Under the pieces are notes generated by a model that saw only the letters and a program-made list of their open reading frames with translations, made no database searches and was not told the DNA's origin. The position numbers and the translations under genes are program-made. DNA of 64,000 nt from assembly GCA_963719365.1 (NCBI GenBank), contig OY970380.1, forward strand, positions 3,506,144 to 3,570,143, written 5' to 3'. Origin of the DNA: Thermoanaerobaculia bacterium (GTDB taxonomy: Bacteria; Acidobacteriota; Thermoanaerobaculia; Gp7-AA8). Of this stretch, positions 4,207 through 58,771 are shown piece after piece. Within the stretch, counting starts at the first letter, position 1, and every line of letters begins with the position of its first letter.

Positions 4207-5484
4207 CTACCGAACTCTCACCGTCTGCGCGATGTAGTTTCCATCGCCGTCGCGATAGGCCTTGATCACGACCGAGTCGCCAGCGCGGAGCCGGGCGGCG
4301 GTCGACAATGTGCCCGCTTTCGTGCGGATGGGCAGGTCGTCGAGTGCATAGACGCGGGTGATCAGCCGGTCGTTTTCCGTATCGCGCAGCACGAGTTGGC
4401 TGCTGTCCGCGAGCGTTTGCGTCACGATGCCGTAAATCGTCACGACGCCGAGGTCGGCTACGATGCGTGAGGGGACGGTGTTCACTGACGGTGCTGGCGC
4501 AACGTTGTTCTGATCAGTGAAGTGCAGAGTCGTTGCCACGAATGTTGATCCCGTGTACGAACCGCTGAGCTCGACTTGGTCGCCTGCCTGCACGTCGCGC
4601 GCGCGAACGGCCTTGCCGTCCGGATCGGTCGTCGCGCGAAGGTCGACTGCAACTGATCCTCGTCCGGCATCGACCTGGATGACGTTGTTGCCGCGATCGA
4701 CACGCGTCACGCGGCCACTCAATGCGCCGACGCCGTTCGTGCGCGAGCCTGACTCATTCGCGCTTTGCGTCACCTCGATCGAGCGTGCGCTGAGGTCGGT
4801 ACCGGCAGCGCCACCGTTGATCTCAACACGGATACGGTCGCCGACTTCGAGGTTGGAGATCCGGAACGTGTCGCCGTGATAACTGACCGGTGTTCGTTGC
4901 GGCGTGCGCACGGTCAGCACCTCACGCTGGTCCGTCACGATGACAAGCCGTCCAGCCTCGGCATTGATCTGCTGCAGAACACCTTCGACACGGCCGGGAC
5001 GATCGGGAACGGTGCTCGGCCTGGTGCCCGATGCGGTCGGTGTCGAGATGGACATTGGCGTGCGCGTTTGCCCGACACCTGTTTGCGGCGCGTCGACCGG
5101 ACGGCCGAGGAGAGTGACGCGCTCGGCACGAACGACGTTGCCTCCAGCGCCCGTTCCGCGTACGTCGATCCGGTCTCCCACGCGAACATTGTTGAATCCG
5201 TTCGACCCGACGAAGATCTCCGGCGCGCCGTTGATCGTGCCGCCGAAACCGTTGTACTGCGTCGAGACCGAGTCGGTGTCGATGATGACCTGATCGCTCA
5301 GCGCATCATCAGGCGTGACGATGATGCGGTTGCGCCCGTTGATCGTGTCCGCAACCGTCCCGCTAATGTTCCCGCGAATCCCTTCCTGCACGTCCGCGCT
5401 CGTCCGCCACACAGTACGATCCTGTCCAAAGGCGGCGACAGCAAAAAGCGCCGCGAAGATGAAGATCGCTCGTATTTGTTTCAT
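4207..5484 (-). CDS. secreted protein built from about four tandem OB-fold-like (BOF/YgiW-type) repeats
   Basis: N-terminal signal peptide (MKQIRAIFIFAALFAVAAFGQ). Recurring pattern V..V...T.....GD.I.V.G....G.......I.V (e.g. VGDRIRVEINGGAAGTDLSARSIEV, AGDQVELSGSY, AGDSVVIKAYRDGDGNYIAQTVRV). Confidence 0.5.
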   Translation of the reverse strand: MKQIRAIFIFAALFAVAAFGQDRTVWRTSADVQEGIRGNISGTVADTINGRNRIIVTPDDALSDQVIIDTDSVSTQYNGFGGTINGAPEIFVGSNGFNNVRVGDRIDVRGTGAGGNVVRAERVTLLGRPVDAPQTGVGQTRTPMSISTPTASGTRPSTVPDRPGRVEGVLQQINAEAGRLVIVTDQREVLTVRTPQRTPVSYHGDTFRISNLEVGDRIRVEINGGAAGTDLSARSIEVTQSANESGSRTNGVGALSGRVTRVDRGNNVIQVDAGRGSVAVDLRATTDPDGKAVRARDVQAGDQVELSGSYTGSTFVATTLHFTDQNNVAPAPSVNTVPSRIVADLGVVTIYGIVTQTLADSSQLVLRDTENDRLITRVYALDDLPIRTKAGTLSTAARLRAGDSVVIKAYRDGDGNYIAQTVRVR

Positions 5485-6912: not shown

Positions 6913-7830
6913 TCAGGCGCCGGACGGAATCTCTTCTTCCGGCTCGCCCGCCGAGATCAGTTTCTCGAGCACGATGGCCTGATGCGATCCGCTGACGACC
7001 GCCACGCGCTCGGGTGCGTCCAGCGACGCGGAAAGCTCGATCGACGTCTTCGTCACTGACTCGATGAACGTCATCGGCAGTGATGGCTGCGCTTCGATCT
7101 CGCGCCGTGTCCGAGCCGCGCGCTCCTCGGCGTCGCGGAACTCTTTGTTGAAGATGAGCAGCGACGGCGCGACCTTCTCGTACAACTCGGCGGTGGCGCG
7201 CACGTCGTCGAGACAGTAGTCGGCGATCTCGCGATGCCGTCCGGCGCGATACCACGTCTCGACCGAACGTCCGTCGAGTCCTTCGCCTTTCGATGTCTCC
7301 ACGCCGAACACCTTGCAGGCGAGATCGAGGTTGAATTTGAATTGCCGCGCGTTGGTGGTGCCAAAAAAGTTGAGCACTTCGCGCAGATCGCAGTTGGGAT
7401 GGTAGCCGTAGCGATATCCGACGAGATCACGCTTCGGGACGATGCCGTTGATCGCCGACCGGATCATCAGAAACGGTCCGTCGAACTGCCGGCCGTTGAA
7501 GGTGATGAAGCGCGAGTCGCTGTCGAAGAACTCCCAGAATTTCTCCAGGATCTGCTTCTCGCTGCCCGACATGTACGTCCGCGAGCCGCTTTTCTCAACC
7601 GCGAGCTGCGCCTGCCCCGGCACTTCATACATCGCGCAGGAACGACCGTCTTCGATGTTGATGACGCCGATGGCGATGATCCGCCCGCGAAACGGCGAGA
7701 GCCCGCCAGCCCTTCGCGTCTCCTCGGCATCCCCATCGTTGAGCCCCTTGATGAGGTACTCGCGAACGTAAGCGTCGAGCTCTTCCCACGGCGTTCCAAC
7801 CGTTTCGATATCGATGACGAGTTTTTTCAT
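6913..7830 (-). CDS. predicted 3'-5' exonuclease, RNase H-like DEDD fold (PolB-exonuclease-like, COG3298-type)
   Basis: Exo I-like DIETVG at the N-terminus, Exo II-like FNGRQFDGPF, and Exo III-like YCLDDVRAT (Y-x3-D). Lies 20 nt upstream of guaD on the same strand. Confidence 0.5.
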   Translation of the reverse strand: MKKLVIDIETVGTPWEELDAYVREYLIKGLNDGDAEETRRAGGLSPFRGRIIAIGVINIEDGRSCAMYEVPGQAQLAVEKSGSRTYMSGSEKQILEKFWEFFDSDSRFITFNGRQFDGPFLMIRSAINGIVPKRDLVGYRYGYHPNCDLREVLNFFGTTNARQFKFNLDLACKVFGVETSKGEGLDGRSVETWYRAGRHREIADYCLDDVRATAELYEKVAPSLLIFNKEFRDAEERAARTRREIEAQPSLPMTFIESVTKTSIELSASLDAPERVAVVSGSHQAIVLEKLISAGEPEEEIPSGA

Positions 7831-7952
7831 GGGGGGCGTGTTTCGCTGATCTTAGTCCAACCCGAACCCAGTAGTTGGCCTTTCCAGAAACCGTTGGTTG
7901 CACAGAAATAGTTGCATATAGAAAAATAGAGACCTATAGTGTTCGATCTTCA

Positions 7953-8336
7953 ATGAGTAGAGTGCCCAAGAAGCTGTTGCTCGAACTGACTCCGGCGCTT
8001 GCCGAGCGTCTTCAGGAAGTGTGCGAAGAGCGCGGCGCGACGAAGATTGGTGTGATTCGTTTGGCGCTCGAGATTTATCTGCGCCAAGTTGATCCGGCAG
8101 AGAGCGAACACTTCGTCGTGAAATTGCCAAAGGACACGGCGGAAACCTTTGCCGCGTTCCGTGAGATTCGCAAGTACCCGGACCGCGCGAAGTTGATCGA
8201 GTCGGCGCTGCTCGACCACATCAATCAGGAGTGCGAACAGGAAAAGACGCTGCGACCACACATTGAAAGAGTGAAGAACGTACAGGCTCGGAAGCGAATT
8301 CACGAAATCAAAGAGGCACGGGCGAAAGGCGAGTGA
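7953..8336 (+). CDS. small protein with two ribbon-helix-helix-like units (putative DNA-binding / antitoxin-like)
   Basis: Lies in a visibly lower-GC stretch. KKLLLELTPALAERLQEV..IGVIRLALEIYL and FVVKLPKDTAETFAAFREI..RAKLIESALLDHI each fit a beta-alpha-alpha RHH pattern. Start at the ATG at 7953 is preferred over the upstream TTG at 7875, which would translate an AT-rich leader. Confidence 0.4.
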   Translation: MSRVPKKLLLELTPALAERLQEVCEERGATKIGVIRLALEIYLRQVDPAESEHFVVKLPKDTAETFAAFREIRKYPDRAKLIESALLDHINQECEQEKTLRPHIERVKNVQARKRIHEIKEARAKGE

Positions 8337-8363
8337 AGGGCGTGATGATCCGTGGGGAGAGTC

Positions 8364-8606
8364 ATGATGCAACAAAAGAAACACATCGAAGTGACCGAAG
8401 AAGAGGCCCAGGACTATGTTTCCACCCTTGAGCAGGCAGGGATTCGAGTCCACACGACCACCGAGCTTGGCGAGAAGGCAATCGTGGATATCTACGAGAA
8501 CGACCGATTGCACAGCGAAGTGTGGCGCGTGCTAAAGATGGACGGAACGCCTCGCATCTCGCTCACAATTCGTGGCCGGCGTGGAAACGGGAGCAGCGAT
8601 TCGTAG
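8364..8606 (+). CDS. small hypothetical protein (about 80 aa), co-oriented partner of the RHH gene
   Basis: GGGGAGAG Shine-Dalgarno immediately upstream of the tandem ATGs at 8364 and 8367. Lies 27 nt after the previous stop and has no recognisable motif. Confidence 0.35.
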   Translation: MMQQKKHIEVTEEEAQDYVSTLEQAGIRVHTTTELGEKAIVDIYENDRLHSEVWRVLKMDGTPRISLTIRGRRGNGSSDS

Positions 8607-8609
8607 CTA

Positions 8610-9539
8610 CTACGCCTGCGTCTTCAGCGTGTCGAACAGTTCCTTCACCGCATCCGCCGACTTCTGCAACGCCGTCTTTTCGTCCGGCGTCAGCGTGATC
8701 TCGATGATCTGCTCGATTCCGTTGCGGCCGAGTTTCACCGGCACGCCGACGTAGAGGTTGTTGAAGCCGTACTCGCCGGTGAGATACGCGGCGCACGGAA
8801 GGATCTTGCGTTTGTCCTTGAGGATCGCTTCGACCATCTCCACCGTCGCGGCGCCGGGCGCGTACCAGGCGGACGTCTTCAGCAGGTTGACGATCTCGGC
8901 GCCGCCGGTGCGAGTACGCTCGACGATTGCGTCGATGCGTTCCTTCGAGATCAGCTCGGTGATCGGGATGCCGGCAACCGTCGAGTAGCGCGGCAGCGGA
9001 ACCATCGTGTCGCCGTGGCCGCCGAGGACGAAGGCGTGAGTGTTTTCAACGGAGACGTTCAGCTCCATGGCGATGAACGCGCGCATGCGGGCGGAATCGA
9101 GGACGCCGGCCATGCCGATCACGCGCTCGCGCGGGAAGCCGGATACGCGGCGCGCTACTTCGCACATCGCATCGAGCGGATTGGAAACGATGATCAGGAT
9201 CGCATCGGGTGAACGCTTCGCGATCTCGCGGGTGACGCCGGCCACGATCTCTTCGTTCTTCCAGAGCAGGTCGTCGCGCGACATCCCCGGCTTGCGCGGC
9301 AGCCCGGCCGTGATCACGACGACATCGGAGCCGGCGGTCTCGTCATAGCTGTTCGAGCCGCGAAGGATGGAGTCGTAGTTCTCGACGGGCGCGGTCTCCA
9401 TCAGGTCGAGCGTCTTTCCCTGCGGCACGCCTTCGACGATGTCGACGACAATGACGTCGGCGAGCTCTTTGAGTGCGATTCCCTGCGCAACCGTGGAACC
9501 GACGTTGCCGCCGCCGACCACTGTAACTTTCGTTTTCAT
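8610..9539 (-). CDS. mdh: malate dehydrogenase (LDH-like MDH family)
   Basis: [16 protein letters not shown] Rossmann N-terminus, catalytic-loop region [13 protein letters not shown], and [10 protein letters not shown]. Start is taken at the MKTKV ATG at 9539. Confidence 0.9.
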
Positions 9540-9707
9540 CTCATACCTCGGGGGTGCGATATTTGCGGCGCGGATCATATATCGGAGGCGTTTGGGCGTT
9601 CGTGTGATGGCAGTCGCGGTTGAGTGGGTGCTATGTCACGTGATCTCGCGGTTTCGCGGGATACTCGCGATCTGATCTCTGGTCTCTGATTCCTCACGAA
9701 CAAACAC

Positions 9708-35205: not shown

Positions 35206-35483
35206 GATTTCGTTAACCCTCTGAAAAGAAAGCGGCGAGTATAGCGGCGGGTCGGAAAGTCGTCAAACCAGCCAGCGACCGGGCGGAACGTGGGGTGGTG
35301 ATGGGCTATTCCGTGACGCGGTTTCGGGGTCGCGCGGTTGCGCGAGGTCGCGCGGCGGCACGGTCTCCGCGTGAGGATCGGTCTTGTTTTCTACCGGCCT
35401 TCGAGACCGCGAGACCTCAAAAACCGCGCGACCGCACACAAACAATCCTGTGCTATATTCGCCCACCCTTTCCAGTCTCCGGA

Positions 35484-35514
35484 TTTTCCACAGTTGTGGA
35501 AAAGTTGTGGATTC
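35484..35514. promoter_or_regulatory. cluster of three DnaA-box-like 9-mers (TTTTCCACA, TGTGGAAAA, TGTGGATTC) upstream of dnaA
   Basis: Read directly from the sequence. Each is a one-mismatch variant of TTATCCACA. They lie 27-57 nt upstream of the dnaA ATG. Confidence 0.6.
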
Positions 35515-35540
35515 TCATAAAGATAGGCCGCGCCCCTCCG

Positions 35541-36848
35541 ATGAATCTATGGCAGCAAGTGCTCGACCGGCTGGAGCAAACCATCGAACGGACGCAGTAC
35601 AAAACGTGGTTTGTTCCGACCCGCTTTCTGGCCCAGAAGGGTGACACGATCGATGTCAGCGTACCGTCGCAGCGTTTCGTAAGCGAGATCCGCCAAAACT
35701 ACGCGCAACAGATCCGGTCGATCCTCGACGAGCTCTCGACCGATCACATCAATCTCCACCTCGTCGCGGACACAGAACTTGGTGGCGAGCCGGTTCTCCC
35801 GACGGGACCGGTGCCGTCCGTCGAGATGCCCGCCTCCATCTTCAATCCCCGCTACCGGTTCGAGACGTTCGTTGTCGGCAAATCTAACGAGCTTGCCTTC
35901 GCCGCCTCGAAATCGGTCGCTGAAAATCCGGCCGGCTCTTTCAACCCGCTCTTCATCTACGGCGGCGCCGGCCTCGGCAAAACCCATCTCATCCAGGCCA
36001 TCGCGCAACAGCTTCGCGACACGACCCCGGGCGCGAAGATCGTCTACACATCGGCGGATTCTTTCGTCACGGACTTCATCACCTCGATCCGCTACGACCG
36101 GATGCAGCAGTTCCGCGATCGTTATCGAAAAGTTGACGCTCTCCTCCTCGACGACATCCAGTTCATGGCCAACAAAGAACAGACGCAGGAGGAGTTCTTC
36201 CACACTTTCAATGCCCTTTACGAGACACAGCGACAGATCGTCTTCACCTCCGACGCGCCGCCGAAAGAGATCCCCACACTCGAGGACCGCCTTCGCTCCC
36301 GTTTTGAATGGGGATTGATCGCCGACATCCAGCCACCTGACCTCGAGACGAAGGTAGCAATCCTCCGCAAGAAGGCCGATGAGAAGAAGCTCGACCTTCC
36401 GCACGATGCCGCACTTTTTGTTGCGGAGCGCGTGCGAACGAACATCCGCGAGCTGGAAGGATTGCTCAACCGCATCGAAGTCTTCGCCTCGATGGCGGGG
36501 AAGAAACTCTCGCTGGAGCTGGTGAAGGAAGCACTCAAGGAGTTGCTGTCGAAAGACAACAAACCGATCACCGCGTCCGAAATCTCTCGCGTCGTCGCAG
36601 CACACTACGGAACGACGGTCACGAATCTCAAATCAAAGTCGAACGCAAAGACGGTCGCCTTCCCGCGCCAGGTGGCGATGTACATCTGCAAACATCTGAC
36701 GGATCTTTCCTATCCTGAGATCGGACGCTTCTTCAACGACAAGCATCACTCCACCGTCATGTACTCCGTCGAAAAGATCGACGAGAAAATGCAGAACGAT
36801 CCCCAGTTCGCGCGCGTGCTCGACGGCTTGATGAAGCAGTTCCGATGA
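35541..36848 (+). CDS. dnaA: chromosomal replication initiator protein DnaA
   Basis: Walker A GGAGLGKTHL, sensor/arginine finger region, and C-terminal DNA-binding helix (VAMYICKHLTDLSYPEIGRFFN..DHSTV). Start is taken at the ATG at 35541. Confidence 0.95.
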   Translation: MNLWQQVLDRLEQTIERTQYKTWFVPTRFLAQKGDTIDVSVPSQRFVSEIRQNYAQQIRSILDELSTDHINLHLVADTELGGEPVLPTGPVPSVEMPASIFNPRYRFETFVVGKSNELAFAASKSVAENPAGSFNPLFIYGGAGLGKTHLIQAIAQQLRDTTPGAKIVYTSADSFVTDFITSIRYDRMQQFRDRYRKVDALLLDDIQFMANKEQTQEEFFHTFNALYETQRQIVFTSDAPPKEIPTLEDRLRSRFEWGLIADIQPPDLETKVAILRKKADEKKLDLPHDAALFVAERVRTNIRELEGLLNRIEVFASMAGKKLSLELVKEALKELLSKDNKPITASEISRVVAAHYGTTVTNLKSKSNAKTVAFPRQVAMYICKHLTDLSYPEIGRFFNDKHHSTVMYSVEKIDEKMQNDPQFARVLDGLMKQFR

Positions 36849-37118
36849 ACAGTTGGCACTCTCACGAAGCACTTTCCACAGCACCTGCGGAAACGTCCAT
36901 CCAAAACCTGCGGAGAAAAACGACCGAGGATCACTTGCTCGCAACGACTGCGGAAAACGCGAACGTTCTCCTTCGTTTTTCCGCATCGAAACCCGCAGTT
37001 TTGAACTGGAAGGAACTGCTATACTTTCGAAACCTTTGCAGTGTGATGCCGGGTTTTTCCGCACGCATCCACTGCTTCCACTACTAAGAATAAAGAATTG
37101 GTTTTGAAGGAAGAAGAC
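36849..37118. promoter_or_regulatory. candidate oriC: dnaA-dnaN intergenic region with repeated TGCGGAAAA/TTTTCCGCA 9-mers and an AT-rich stretch
   Basis: Exact 9-mers at 36949-36957, 36977-36985 and 37055-37063. Near-variants at 36872-36880 (CTTTCCACA) and 36886-36894. AT-rich CTACTAAGAATAAAGAATTGGTTTTGAAGG at 37081-37110. Confidence 0.45.
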
Positions 37119-38249
37119 ATGGAGCTGACCGTCGCAAAGGCTGATCTTCAGAAAGAGCTGCAACTTTGCCAGGGAGTCGTCGAAAAGCGCTCGACGATTC
37201 CGATTCTGTCGAACGTGCTGCTCCGCGCGGCTGACGGCCGCCTGCAGATGGCCGCCACCGATCTGGACGTGACGATCCTCAGCTCCTGCGCGGCGCGCGT
37301 CACCACGCCTGGCGGCGTCACGATCGAAGCGAAACGATTGTTCGATATCGTTCGCTCGCTTCCCGACGACGACGTCCACATCACGCTGCAGGAAAACAAC
37401 TCGCTGCTTCTCGATTGCGGCACCGCGAAGTTCCGGCTCCTCGGATTGCCCGCCGAGGATTACCCGACACTGCCGACGGTGAATGCGACCGAGGCGTATG
37501 ACATCCCGCTCGACGAATTGAAGACGATGGTCGCAAAAGTGAAGTTTGCGATCACGCATGAAGAGACACGTTTCCAGTTGAACGGTGCGCTGCTGAAGAT
37601 CCAGCCTACGAAGATGGAGATGGTGGCCACCGATGGTCACCGCATGGCGCTCATCAACTTCCCGCAAGGCAACAACGGCGCGAAAAAAGGGACCGATCTC
37701 ACGATCCTGATTCCTCGCAAGGCGCTGGAAGAAATCATGCGTCTGGAGGCAGGCGAAAACGGGATCGTTCGTTTCGGCGTCTCCGAGAATCACCTTTTCT
37801 TCGAGGCTGCCGAGCGCCGCCTGCTCGCACGCATGATCGACGTCAACTTCCCGAACTACATGGAAGTCATCTCGCGCGACAACGACCGCAAAGTGCTCGT
37901 CGACCGCGAGCGTTTGCTCTCGACCATCCGCCGCATCTCGCTCGTCGCCAACGAACGGACACGTGCCGTGCGCTTCGATTTCGCGCCTGGAAAACTGACG
38001 GTCTCGTCGACGAACCCCGAGCTTGGTGATGCGCGCGAGACAGTTCCCATCGATTACGCCGGCAACCCGTTCTTCGTCGGCCTCAACGCGGCCTACGTCA
38101 CCGACTTTTTGAGCGCGGTCGACACGCAGCAGGTCTCGCTCGATCTCAAAGACGAGAACAGCCAGTGCATCGGCCGTCCCTCGGCAAACGACGCGGACAT
38201 CGCGTACGAATACCTGTACGTCGTGATGCCGATGCGTTTGACGGCGTGA
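37119..38249 (+). CDS. dnaN: DNA polymerase III beta sliding clamp
   Basis: MELTVAKADL N-terminus and three-domain clamp length. The AAGGAAG RBS is correctly spaced for the ATG at 37119; the upstream TTG at 37098 is less likely. Confidence 0.9.
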   Translation: MELTVAKADLQKELQLCQGVVEKRSTIPILSNVLLRAADGRLQMAATDLDVTILSSCAARVTTPGGVTIEAKRLFDIVRSLPDDDVHITLQENNSLLLDCGTAKFRLLGLPAEDYPTLPTVNATEAYDIPLDELKTMVAKVKFAITHEETRFQLNGALLKIQPTKMEMVATDGHRMALINFPQGNNGAKKGTDLTILIPRKALEEIMRLEAGENGIVRFGVSENHLFFEAAERRLLARMIDVNFPNYMEVISRDNDRKVLVDRERLLSTIRRISLVANERTRAVRFDFAPGKLTVSSTNPELGDARETVPIDYAGNPFFVGLNAAYVTDFLSAVDTQQVSLDLKDENSQCIGRPSANDADIAYEYLYVVMPMRLTA

Positions 38250-57319: not shown

Positions 57320-58771
57320 TTAGTCCTCGCTATTTGTCCATCGCAGGCCTTGATCGTACCAGCGCCAAATTTTATCGTCAGGCCATGCGAGTAGTCTTAG
57401 AACGATGCGTTCTGTAAGCACACGCAATCGCACAAGGTCGCTGTTAATTTCGTCGGGAGCGTCGCAAGTGGCGGCATGAAACAAGGCGTTCCGGGCAGCT
57501 GTGGCGCGCGTGAATCCGGAATCGAAGCCCACTGAGGCCGGCCACAAGTCGGCGGTCTTTACCGCAAACTTCTCACAGAGCGCGAGCACTCTTCGCCGTA
57601 TAGAAATACGACGCACTTCGGGCAGCTTCTCTGCTAGAAGTTTGCGCGTCTCTTCACGTTCGGTTGCGTCAACAACTTCGGTTTCCAAGTAGTCCGCGAT
57701 TGCCTGAGTGAGCTGCTTCTTCAGGCGGCCCCACCTCGCCTCGCCAAGGGCGTGAGAATTCTTGCCTTCCCCAGCGCTCACGACACATTCAAGCGCGGAG
57801 AATGCAAGGAAGTACGATCCCTCCAGAGAATCACTGGAGTACGCGCTCGCCAAGAAGCCGATCCCTCGCGATAACTCCTCTTTGCACTCCGTTTTGCTGT
57901 ATGCGCTAAAGAGCTTATGGAGACCGCCGTCTATCAGGTCGCGGAAATTGATTAGGTCGTCCGGCCCACTCCGTTTGGGGGCGCCAAGTATCTTGCGACG
58001 TACGATCGATTGAACCGCTGGCGCATCCTCAGGTGCGTATACATAACTGATCTCATAGAAAGTAACCCTTACGCGGTAGCAGAGGCTGAGAATAGTGCAA
58101 ATGTCAAACACCGTCTGTTGCACTGTTGCGTTCAGCGTCGCGAGCGTTTCACCGGCATGAGCCAGGACATTGCCGAAAATGACGGCTCGCTGCACCAATT
58201 TAGTTACCTTGTTACCAAACTCTTCCTCGCTACCACTGTCGTAAAAATCCCGAACACTCCACGTGCCATGCGCAGTCTCGAGGGTGATCTCGCCTTCCTC
58301 GACATGCTCTCGCTCAATCTCGCCGTTTCCTTTGAACGAAATAACCGCTGGCTGCTGAACAATCCCACTCGGAGTGAGCTGGACGCCCATCCCGTATGTC
58401 CTATCCGTATCAAGGACCTCATCAGTTATTCCGATTTGCACGGCTTCTGCCTCGGGTATTACCACGCGTATTTCACCGCTACCGCCCTCAGAGGCGATCC
58501 CTCGAATTCCCATCAGCTCGACATTTTGGGTTTCTGGTGCCTTCGCGTAGAGTGACAAGTAGTCCCACTCGGGATGGCTAAGTTGCGAATAAACCAGAAT
58601 TCGGTGGTCGCGGTCATCACCGAGTACGTTCAGTCGTATGCTAAGCGATGAAACGTCGTGCTTACGAAATCTGATATCCGCAAAAACCTCGGCAGGAACG
58701 TCGGGCGCTGTAACGGCGGCCGACAATTCATAGATTACTTCGCCAGTTACCGAATCATGACGCATAGTCAC
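57320..58771 (-). CDS. 483-aa protein with a beta-rich N-terminal domain and a C-terminal HEPN-type domain (R-x4-H motif ARNALFH); ApeA-like defence candidate
   Basis: Visibly lower GC than the flanks. C-terminal helical region ends with ...GFTRATAARNALFHAATCD, which matches the HEPN Rx4-6H RNase motif. Convergent with the regulator gene, 4-nt gap. Confidence 0.55.
   Translation of the reverse strand: MTMRHDSVTGEVIYELSAAVTAPDVPAEVFADIRFRKHDVSSLSIRLNVLGDDRDHRILVYSQLSHPEWDYLSLYAKAPETQNVELMGIRGIASEGGSGEIRVVIPEAEAVQIGITDEVLDTDRTYGMGVQLTPSGIVQQPAVISFKGNGEIEREHVEEGEITLETAHGTWSVRDFYDSGSEEEFGNKVTKLVQRAVIFGNVLAHAGETLATLNATVQQTVFDICTILSLCYRVRVTFYEISYVYAPEDAPAVQSIVRRKILGAPKRSGPDDLINFRDLIDGGLHKLFSAYSKTECKEELSRGIGFLASAYSSDSLEGSYFLAFSALECVVSAGEGKNSHALGEARWGRLKKQLTQAIADYLETEVVDATEREETRKLLAEKLPEVRRISIRRRVLALCEKFAVKTADLWPASVGFDSGFTRATAARNALFHAATCDAPDEINSDLVRLRVLTERIVLRLLAWPDDKIWRWYDQGLRWTNSED

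Follow-up and report, generated by a model that had tools for sequence, protein, structure and literature searches.

What is a small, AT-rich pair of genes doing between a malate dehydrogenase gene (mdh) and an exonuclease gene in a bacterium of the Thermoanaerobaculia, a poorly studied and mostly uncultured class of soil Acidobacteriota? We analysed a stretch of 64,000 nucleotides (nt) from contig OY970380.1 (hereafter the window, to which all unqualified positions refer), in which positions 7831-8606 hold two adjacent open reading frames (ORFs): ORF1, encoding a ribbon-helix-helix (RHH) protein of 127 amino acids (aa), and ORF2, encoding a protein of 80 aa. The original prediction for this locus was an inserted cassette, perhaps a type II toxin-antitoxin (TA) pair. 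We found that (i) the pair is an accessory insert at a junction that is a hot spot for insertion across the class, (ii) ORF2 belongs to a new protein family, and (iii) the position behind ORF1 is occupied by unrelated genes in related genomes. The explanation that we favour, tentatively and at a little under an even chance, is an autoregulated RHH repressor gating an exchangeable small cargo gene.

A compositionally deviant two-gene module

ORF1 (7953-8336, + strand; ATG at 7953, TGA at 8336) encodes a basic protein with an isoelectric point (pI) of 8.9 and a Pfam RHH_1 match, and ORF2 (8364-8606, + strand; ATG at 8364, TAG at 8606) encodes an acidic protein with a pI of about 5.5, which we call cargo type A. 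They are separated by a 27-nt spacer (8337-8363, + strand) with the motif GATCCGTGGGGAG, which contains the Shine-Dalgarno (SD) sequence of ORF2; the SD candidate, GGGGAG, lies at 8354-8359. A second ATG at 8367 has the better SD spacing and is the one used by the public gene prediction (P0001, 79 aa); it also matches the aligned starts of homologues. On the left, ORF1 is divergent from a PolB-like 3'-5' exonuclease gene (6913-7830, - strand; PF10108, E-value (E) 1.4e-17), across a 122-nt intergenic region (7831-7952, GC 0.46 by direct reading of the sequence) that is part of the insert. On the right, ORF2 is convergent with mdh (8610-9578, - strand; TIGR01763, E 1e-141), with 3 nt between its stop codon and that of mdh (8610). 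The exonuclease gene and mdh are the borders and lie outside the insert. We rechecked the coordinates, sizes, 27-nt gap, SD sequence and position between the exonuclease gene and mdh as first described, and all were correct.

The description of this segment as AT-richer than the rest of the window also held when composition was computed. GC content falls to 0.541 in 7831-8606 from a window mean of 0.613 (z = -2.96), a value as low as this being found in only 1.6% of segments of the same size, and GC at third codon positions is 0.66 in ORF1 and 0.68 in ORF2, against 0.80-0.85 in the three adjacent genes. All copies of the module that we found have a lower GC content than their flanks (0.52-0.58 versus 0.61-0.67). 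Recent acquisition as the sole cause of the low GC is ruled out, since even long-resident copies show the same difference. An Rfam search of positions 7600-8800 and a terminator scan gave no match, and no second copy of the module was found within the window.

A hot spot of insertion between mdh and the exonuclease gene

We scanned GTDB species representatives with the exonuclease protein and obtained 80 loci, all from metagenome-assembled genomes (MAGs) of Thermoanaerobaculia or Acidobacteriota, of which 75 hold both border genes. Within 50 of these 75 loci, mdh and the exonuclease gene are co-directional and no more than 150 nt apart (often 14-50 nt). Because the two genes adjoin in these relatives, the ORF1-ORF2 module is an insert. 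An RHH gene with a type A partner was present in one of the 80 loci (L080), and the pair is thus not a conserved neighbour of mdh across the phylum. Two close relatives of the window place the borders precisely. L020 (synonymous divergence, pS, 0.19-0.25 in the flanks) carries a 133-aa membrane ORF at the junction, and L021 has a gap of only 261 nt; both have an exonuclease 98-99% identical to that of the window and neither has an RHH gene. In the comparison of the window with each of these two loci, DNA homology ends precisely at the start codon of the exonuclease gene on one side and at the stop codon of mdh on the other. Neither target-site duplications nor terminal inverted repeats were evident at the insert borders in the junction sequences. 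Together with a second genomic context (see below), the empty junctions and exact breaks bear out the inserted, compositionally deviant cassette of the original prediction.

The same junction receives other DNA, and it is a hot spot across Thermoanaerobaculia. Unrelated inserts longer than 450 nt were present in 11 loci. The junction inserts include an IS200-like Y1 transposase (L048), an FRG-domain protein (L053), a 306-aa ORF assigned by eye from its sequence as methyltransferase-like (L060), a weakly PIN-like ORF with a 118-aa ORF (L085), a 169-aa protein without assignment (L066), and membrane proteins in further loci. One insert recurs at L045 (2163-3017), L056 (4050-4899) and L047 (4372-4959), as an ORF of 75-80 aa followed by one of 172-206 aa; only the larger ORF was seen in L047. 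The 75-80-aa protein (ITTPFPTPEEVAAELGVSPERHAEIKQM...) weakly matches sigma70 region 3, the 172-206-aa protein has no Pfam match, and the insert looks like another small regulator-plus-effector cassette.

Several features of the junctions and border genes were recorded alongside. Short junction gaps often hold palindromes resembling repetitive extragenic palindromic elements (CATCCTGAG..GAAGGATCT / AGATCCTTC..CTCAGGATG). A 456-nt gap in L027 contains a 106-aa repeat ORF (4554-4874, - strand; QKVCLTTQRVCL...) that probably reflects tandemly repeated DNA and not a gene. In most relatives the exonuclease gene immediately follows mdh in the same orientation and is apparently co-transcribed with it; a gene for an ATP-dependent DNA ligase is a further neighbour. 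The exonuclease is 99% identical at the aa level at a pS of 0.25-0.31 (window, L002, L020-L099), and its N-terminus, MKKLVIDIETVG, is invariant.

ORF1 carries one canonical and one degenerate RHH-like unit

The original prediction described ORF1 as two RHH-like units in tandem; the first is well founded and the second is weakly supported. Unit 1 (aa 7-45) is a canonical CopG-like RHH with a turn, G28-A-T30-K, that is invariant in the alignment. Pfam RHH_1 matches aa 11-44 (E 2.9e-5; 24.3 bits versus a cutoff of 20.5), and the best match of ORF1 in the PDB by profile search is CopG, in register (E 0.012). Judged by this N-terminal profile and turn, ORF1 is a member of the RHH (Arc/MetJ/CopG) superfamily. 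Unit 2 (aa 54-98) is a degenerate beta-alpha-alpha element with a non-canonical, invariant Y-P-D-R at the turn position. Its profile matches are weak: to RHH_1, in register, in two of ten members (E 0.07-0.15), to the NCBIfam CdrS family (E 0.033), and to CopG by hhalign, in register (E 0.023). The two units show no significant similarity to each other. A single-chain tandem RHH is a plausible reading of this arrangement, which ends in a basic C-terminal helix (aa 100-124).

We found 12 homologues of ORF1 (48-93% identity), with a ratio of nonsynonymous to synonymous substitution rates (dN/dS) of about 0.1. The source annotation in IMG is 'CopG/Arc/MetJ family transcriptional regulator' for ORF1, and there is none for ORF2. 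Among the anti-phage defence families of PADLOC-DB 2.0, none matches either protein or any of the homologues at E <= 1.

ORF2 is a genuine gene of a new family

A possible objection is that ORF2 arose by chance in a fast-evolving spacer, leaving ORF1 as the sole gene. Such ORFs are frequent in GC-rich DNA, a word-index database search returned only two matches to ORF2, and the ORFs found at this position vary in length from 52 to 112 aa. The coding constraint on ORF2 speaks against a chance origin. Compared with its 80%-identical homologue in L013, ORF2 has a nonsynonymous divergence (pN) of 0.10 at a saturated pS of 0.79, as expected under purifying selection, and the type A genes of L016 and L017 give a pN of 0.07 at a pS of 0.56. 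Across homologues of 41-80% identity, including those at 41-47%, 16 residues are invariant: E9, E12, T21, Q24, A25, G26, R28, H30, G36, Y44, D47, L49, H50, G61, R64 and L67. Ten of them are polar (E9, E12, T21, Q24, R28, H30, Y44, D47, H50 and R64). The SD sequence is conserved, and AlphaFold returned a confident model (predicted local distance difference test, pLDDT, 80.9) from four sequences only, with a predicted beta-alpha-beta4 fold. On these grounds ORF2 is a real gene, and a chance origin is effectively refuted.

The suggestion that ORF2 may be novel was supported. Sequence searches of Pfam, NCBIfam, PADLOC, PHROGs and the PDB found no match to the ORF2 family, and comparison of the model found neither a fold relative nor a known toxin fold. 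ORF2 is neither a member of nor a fold match to the known toxin superfamilies compared (RelE/ParE, MazF/CcdB, PIN, HicA, Doc, GNAT, Zeta, HipA, BrnT and others). A profile search of 1.84 billion representative proteins added only two further small homologues, P0012 and P0013; three long proteins matching the ORF2 profile (P0011, P0014 and P0015) were rejected as artefacts of repetitive sequence. ORF2 hence belongs to a new family of acidic alpha+beta proteins of 72-80 aa, which would be the ancestral form of the cargo.

The pair is conserved over deep divergence and occurs in two contexts

All ORF1 homologues that we found come from soil metagenome contigs or MAGs. Except in L017 and L018, those whose upstream side is covered by the contig are oriented divergently to the same exonuclease gene, and they lie upstream of mdh in the contigs that reach far enough downstream. 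Every ORF2 homologue (41-80% identity; P0002, P0012, P0013, L017 and L019) lies 16-33 nt downstream of an ORF1 homologue, and all seven type A lineages found carry the RHH gene directly upstream. This pairing holds across RHH identities of 48-100%. The SD motif (GA)TCCGTGGGGAG is conserved before the ORF2 homologues, and the spacer motif is kept in type A loci down to 58% RHH identity. The ORF1-ORF2 pair is a conserved unit over deep divergence.

L017 and L018 provide the second context. Here a tRNA-Pro(GGG) gene is found about 290 nt away from the pair (in L017, module at 202-832 and tRNA at 1122-1198, - strand), and neither the exonuclease gene nor mdh was detected on 8.6 kb, with only 201 nt upstream of the RHH gene. 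Homologous pairs thus occur in other genomes and in variable surroundings, both at the mdh/exonuclease junction and beside tRNA-Pro. We found no homologue of the module among IMG/VR viral contigs or in phage and plasmid collections, and a tblastn search of 72,556 plasmids gave no match. A GTDB scan with the RHH alignment also gave no match, its degenerate peptide patterns being too narrow; the RHH-bearing L080 came later from the exonuclease scan.

Cargo is replaced and alleles are exchanged around a conserved RHH gene

In the clade of the window, the slot downstream of the RHH gene holds four unrelated ORF types of 52-112 aa. Type A is found in the window, L013 and L100; type B (52-64 aa; dN/dS 0.35-0.42) in L003, L009 and L012; type C (80 aa) in L004-L006 and L008; and type D, a 112-aa membrane protein, in L002. 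L007 has an RHH gene identical to that of the type C loci, and its downstream ORF is cut by the contig end, so its cargo was not checked. Type A is replaced by B, C or D from the SD sequence to the 3' end, with breakpoints at about 8354 on the left, in the spacer just before the ORF2 start, and at about 8595 on the right. A relic of the SD motif (TCCGTGAGAG) is kept in type B and type C loci. The window type A gene (8595-8606) and the unrelated type B gene of L012 (925-939) share their final four codons and stop (..SDS*). Here the right breakpoint falls within the 3' end of the reading frame, and each gene runs on into the shared flank. No type A coding remnants are left in the B, C or D loci. 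Three candidate kinships were rejected: type A with type C (hhalign probability 6%, restricted to a helix and an 'AGI' motif), type A with type B (no hhalign match), and the L002 membrane ORF with that of L020 (no match).

The RHH protein, including its C-terminal helix, is conserved across these replacements (dN/dS 0.07-0.13) and does not co-vary with the cargo. Since the partner is replaced without a response in the RHH protein, the latter has a function independent of type A.

The RHH alleles do not follow the tree of the flanking genes, nor does cargo type match RHH clade. In the exonuclease tree, carriers are mixed with non-carriers at three separate points. One case is L009 and L100: their flanks (exonuclease and a guanine deaminase-like gene) differ by a pS of 0.20-0.23 and a pN of at most 0.004, compared with a pS of 0.70 and a pN of 0.196 for their RHH genes, and the downstream genes differ. 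This contrast is direct evidence of allele exchange at the junction site.

A putative promoter overlaps short direct repeats

The intergenic region was originally described as holding spaced TTGCA(C/T) direct repeats upstream of ORF1. They are present, as TTGCACAGAAATAGTTGCAT at 7898-7917 (TTGCAC-N8-TTGCAT), and above chance: the pattern TTGCAY-N8-11-TTGCAY occurs once in the 64 kb, with 0.04 expected. Extended by one base, they form GTTGCA direct repeats at 7897-7902 and 7911-7916. The second repeat is part of what we infer to be a sigma70-like promoter of ORF1, with a putative -35 element TTGCAT (7912-7917), a 17-nt spacer and a putative -10 element TATAGT (7935-7940). Since TATAGT ends 12 nt before the ATG, the ORF1 mRNA would be near-leaderless and lack an SD sequence. 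The block GTTGCATAT..TATAG(T), 12-13 nt from the start codon, is kept in all related loci. The exonuclease-proximal half of the region (GCTGATnTTAnnC...TTCCAnAAAC) is kept in every contig covering that side, except in the tRNA-Pro context, where the upstream side is cut.

A proposed repressor-gated cargo slot and its alternatives

We propose that 7831-8609, inserted where mdh meets the exonuclease gene at a hot spot of recombination, may form a self-contained accessory operon. It would bring its own promoter overlapping the short repeats, with ORF1 translated from a near-leaderless mRNA and an SD-led cargo gene downstream. The RHH protein is predicted to bind the GTTGCA/TATAG repeats lying across the -35 and -10 elements of its own gene; binding would repress the operon, and probably also affect the divergent exonuclease promoter, such that the cargo would be expressed only in a controlled or transient way. 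The cargo position would be an exchangeable slot, and recombination in the conserved flanks would shuffle RHH and cargo alleles between related genomes. DNA binding at the repeats, autoregulation and any activity of ORF2 are predictions from this arrangement.

Several observations weigh against this repressor-gated slot. A consensus promoter scanner did not call the ORF1 promoter (three of six positions of the -35 hexamer match), and the upstream GTTGCA repeat is missing in more distant loci. The AlphaFold monomer model of ORF1 is poor (pLDDT 49), with no strands formed. The replacement cargoes B, C and D begin 90-214 nt beyond the RHH stop codon and may not share a transcript with the RHH gene. 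The tight coupling that RHH and type A have kept through deep divergence would be accounted for equally well by a partnership between the two proteins, as in a TA pair.

That partnership is the strongest alternative and a serious rival, although we consider it unlikely. ORF2 would then be a new small toxin, for example a ribonuclease, and ORF1 an RHH antitoxin that neutralises it through the C-terminal helix and regulates its own operon. The invariant His, Arg, Tyr and Asp residues (the R28/H30/Y44/D47/H50 set) would suit a small nuclease, and the order, sizes and 27-nt spacing follow the canonical type II layout of small, adjacent, co-directional genes with the DNA-binding protein first. The RHH family is one of two hubs among antitoxins (PMC2701414), there is a weak NCBIfam match to a RelB-like antitoxin (E 0.047), and conservation of the pair at 41-80% ORF2 identity also agrees with this view, as do its patchy, horizontally exchanged distribution, the insertion hot spot and the tRNA neighbour. 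The TA label of the original prediction, which was drawn from gene order, size and mobility, is nevertheless not supported, and several findings argue against it: an acidic ORF2 with a basic ORF1 is the reverse of the usual TA charge pattern, ORF2 matches no toxin family in Pfam, NCBIfam or PADLOC and no toxin fold, and the presumed toxin has been replaced by at least three unrelated ORFs with the presumed antitoxin unchanged and under strong purifying selection. In a further reading, the RHH protein would serve the host as a domesticated transcription factor for the exonuclease gene, which the insertion has cut off from the mdh promoter; ORF2 and the other cargo would then be passengers. The divergent exonuclease/RHH layout and the exonuclease-proximal intergenic half, both conserved outside the tRNA-Pro context, speak for this reading, as does purifying selection on the RHH gene whatever gene lies downstream. 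We regard this as very unlikely, given that L020 and L021 have nearly identical exonucleases and no RHH gene, that RHH alleles are horizontally exchanged and the exonuclease gene is not, and that type A is coupled to the RHH gene at 16-33 nt with a conserved SD sequence over deep divergence. L017 also carries RHH and type A together, with no exonuclease gene or mdh detected on the contig (201 nt upstream of the RHH gene).

The repressor-gated slot can be extended into a bolder proposal, which we think improbable but less so than a host regulator of the exonuclease gene. ORF2 might found a new family of small effectors (toxins or conflict proteins), with the RHH gene anchoring a hot-swappable cargo slot whose alleles A-D are kept and shuffled by balancing or diversifying selection. 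On this view the locus would be a variable conflict locus in miniature, anchored by its regulator, and not a two-gene system of fixed composition.

Comparison with known RHH-led systems

In P22 arc-ant, in pMV158 copG-repB and with the C-proteins of restriction-modification systems, an autoregulated repressor controls a downstream gene. The present module resembles arc-ant and copG-repB in having a small, putative RHH repressor gene first, a putative promoter over repeats, a downstream gene that would be under its control, and a mobile setting. CopG and Arc are 45-53 aa long, whereas ORF1 has 127 aa with a degenerate second unit and a C-terminal helix. The arc-ant and copG-repB cargoes are an antirepressor and a replication initiator, in contrast to the new 80-aa protein here, and those systems reside on a phage and a plasmid, whereas the ORF1-ORF2 module is chromosomal and without plasmid or phage homologues. 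RHH-led TA operons (RelBE, ParDE, CcdAB, VapBC/FitAB, AtaRT and DinJ-YafQ) share with it the RHH gene in first place, a small partner, tight spacing, a patchy or mobile distribution and lower GC. They differ in that ORF2 has no toxin family or fold, the charges are reversed, and the partner is interchangeable without co-variation of the RHH protein.

TraY of the F plasmid is monomeric, a single chain containing the complete RHH dimer fold (PMC12117103). ORF1 has the size and the twofold beta-alpha-alpha pattern that such a protein would be expected to have. Unlike F TraY, ORF1 has a second unit that is weakly RHH-like and a poor model fold, and its locus is flanked by the exonuclease gene and mdh, with no relaxase, origin of transfer (oriT) or conjugation gene nearby and no plasmid homologue.

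Small operons headed by an RHH gene are very common, and so are RHH antitoxins (PMC2701414). The novelty lies in the partner family, in a possible single-chain double RHH, and in well-resolved hot-spot and cargo-swap dynamics in an uncultured acidobacterial class. If ORF2 is an RHH-controlled effector, it would add a new small-protein family, with a fold without clear relative, to the RHH-led accessory modules; otherwise the pair is one more 'RHH plus hypothetical protein' pair, of which many exist in genomes. The locus is a natural example of presence/absence polymorphism, flank-discordant allele exchange and cargo-only replacement at one junction, and is useful for studying the turnover of small accessory cassettes.

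Other features of the window

The window spans the chromosomal replication-origin region, with dnaA (35295-36848, + strand) followed by dnaN (37098-38249, + strand) about 28 kb from the module. The dnaA area is one of the three lowest-GC spots in the window. Another lowest-GC stretch holds a 483-aa ORF (57320-58771, - strand) with no family obvious by eye, which may itself be an accessory insert.

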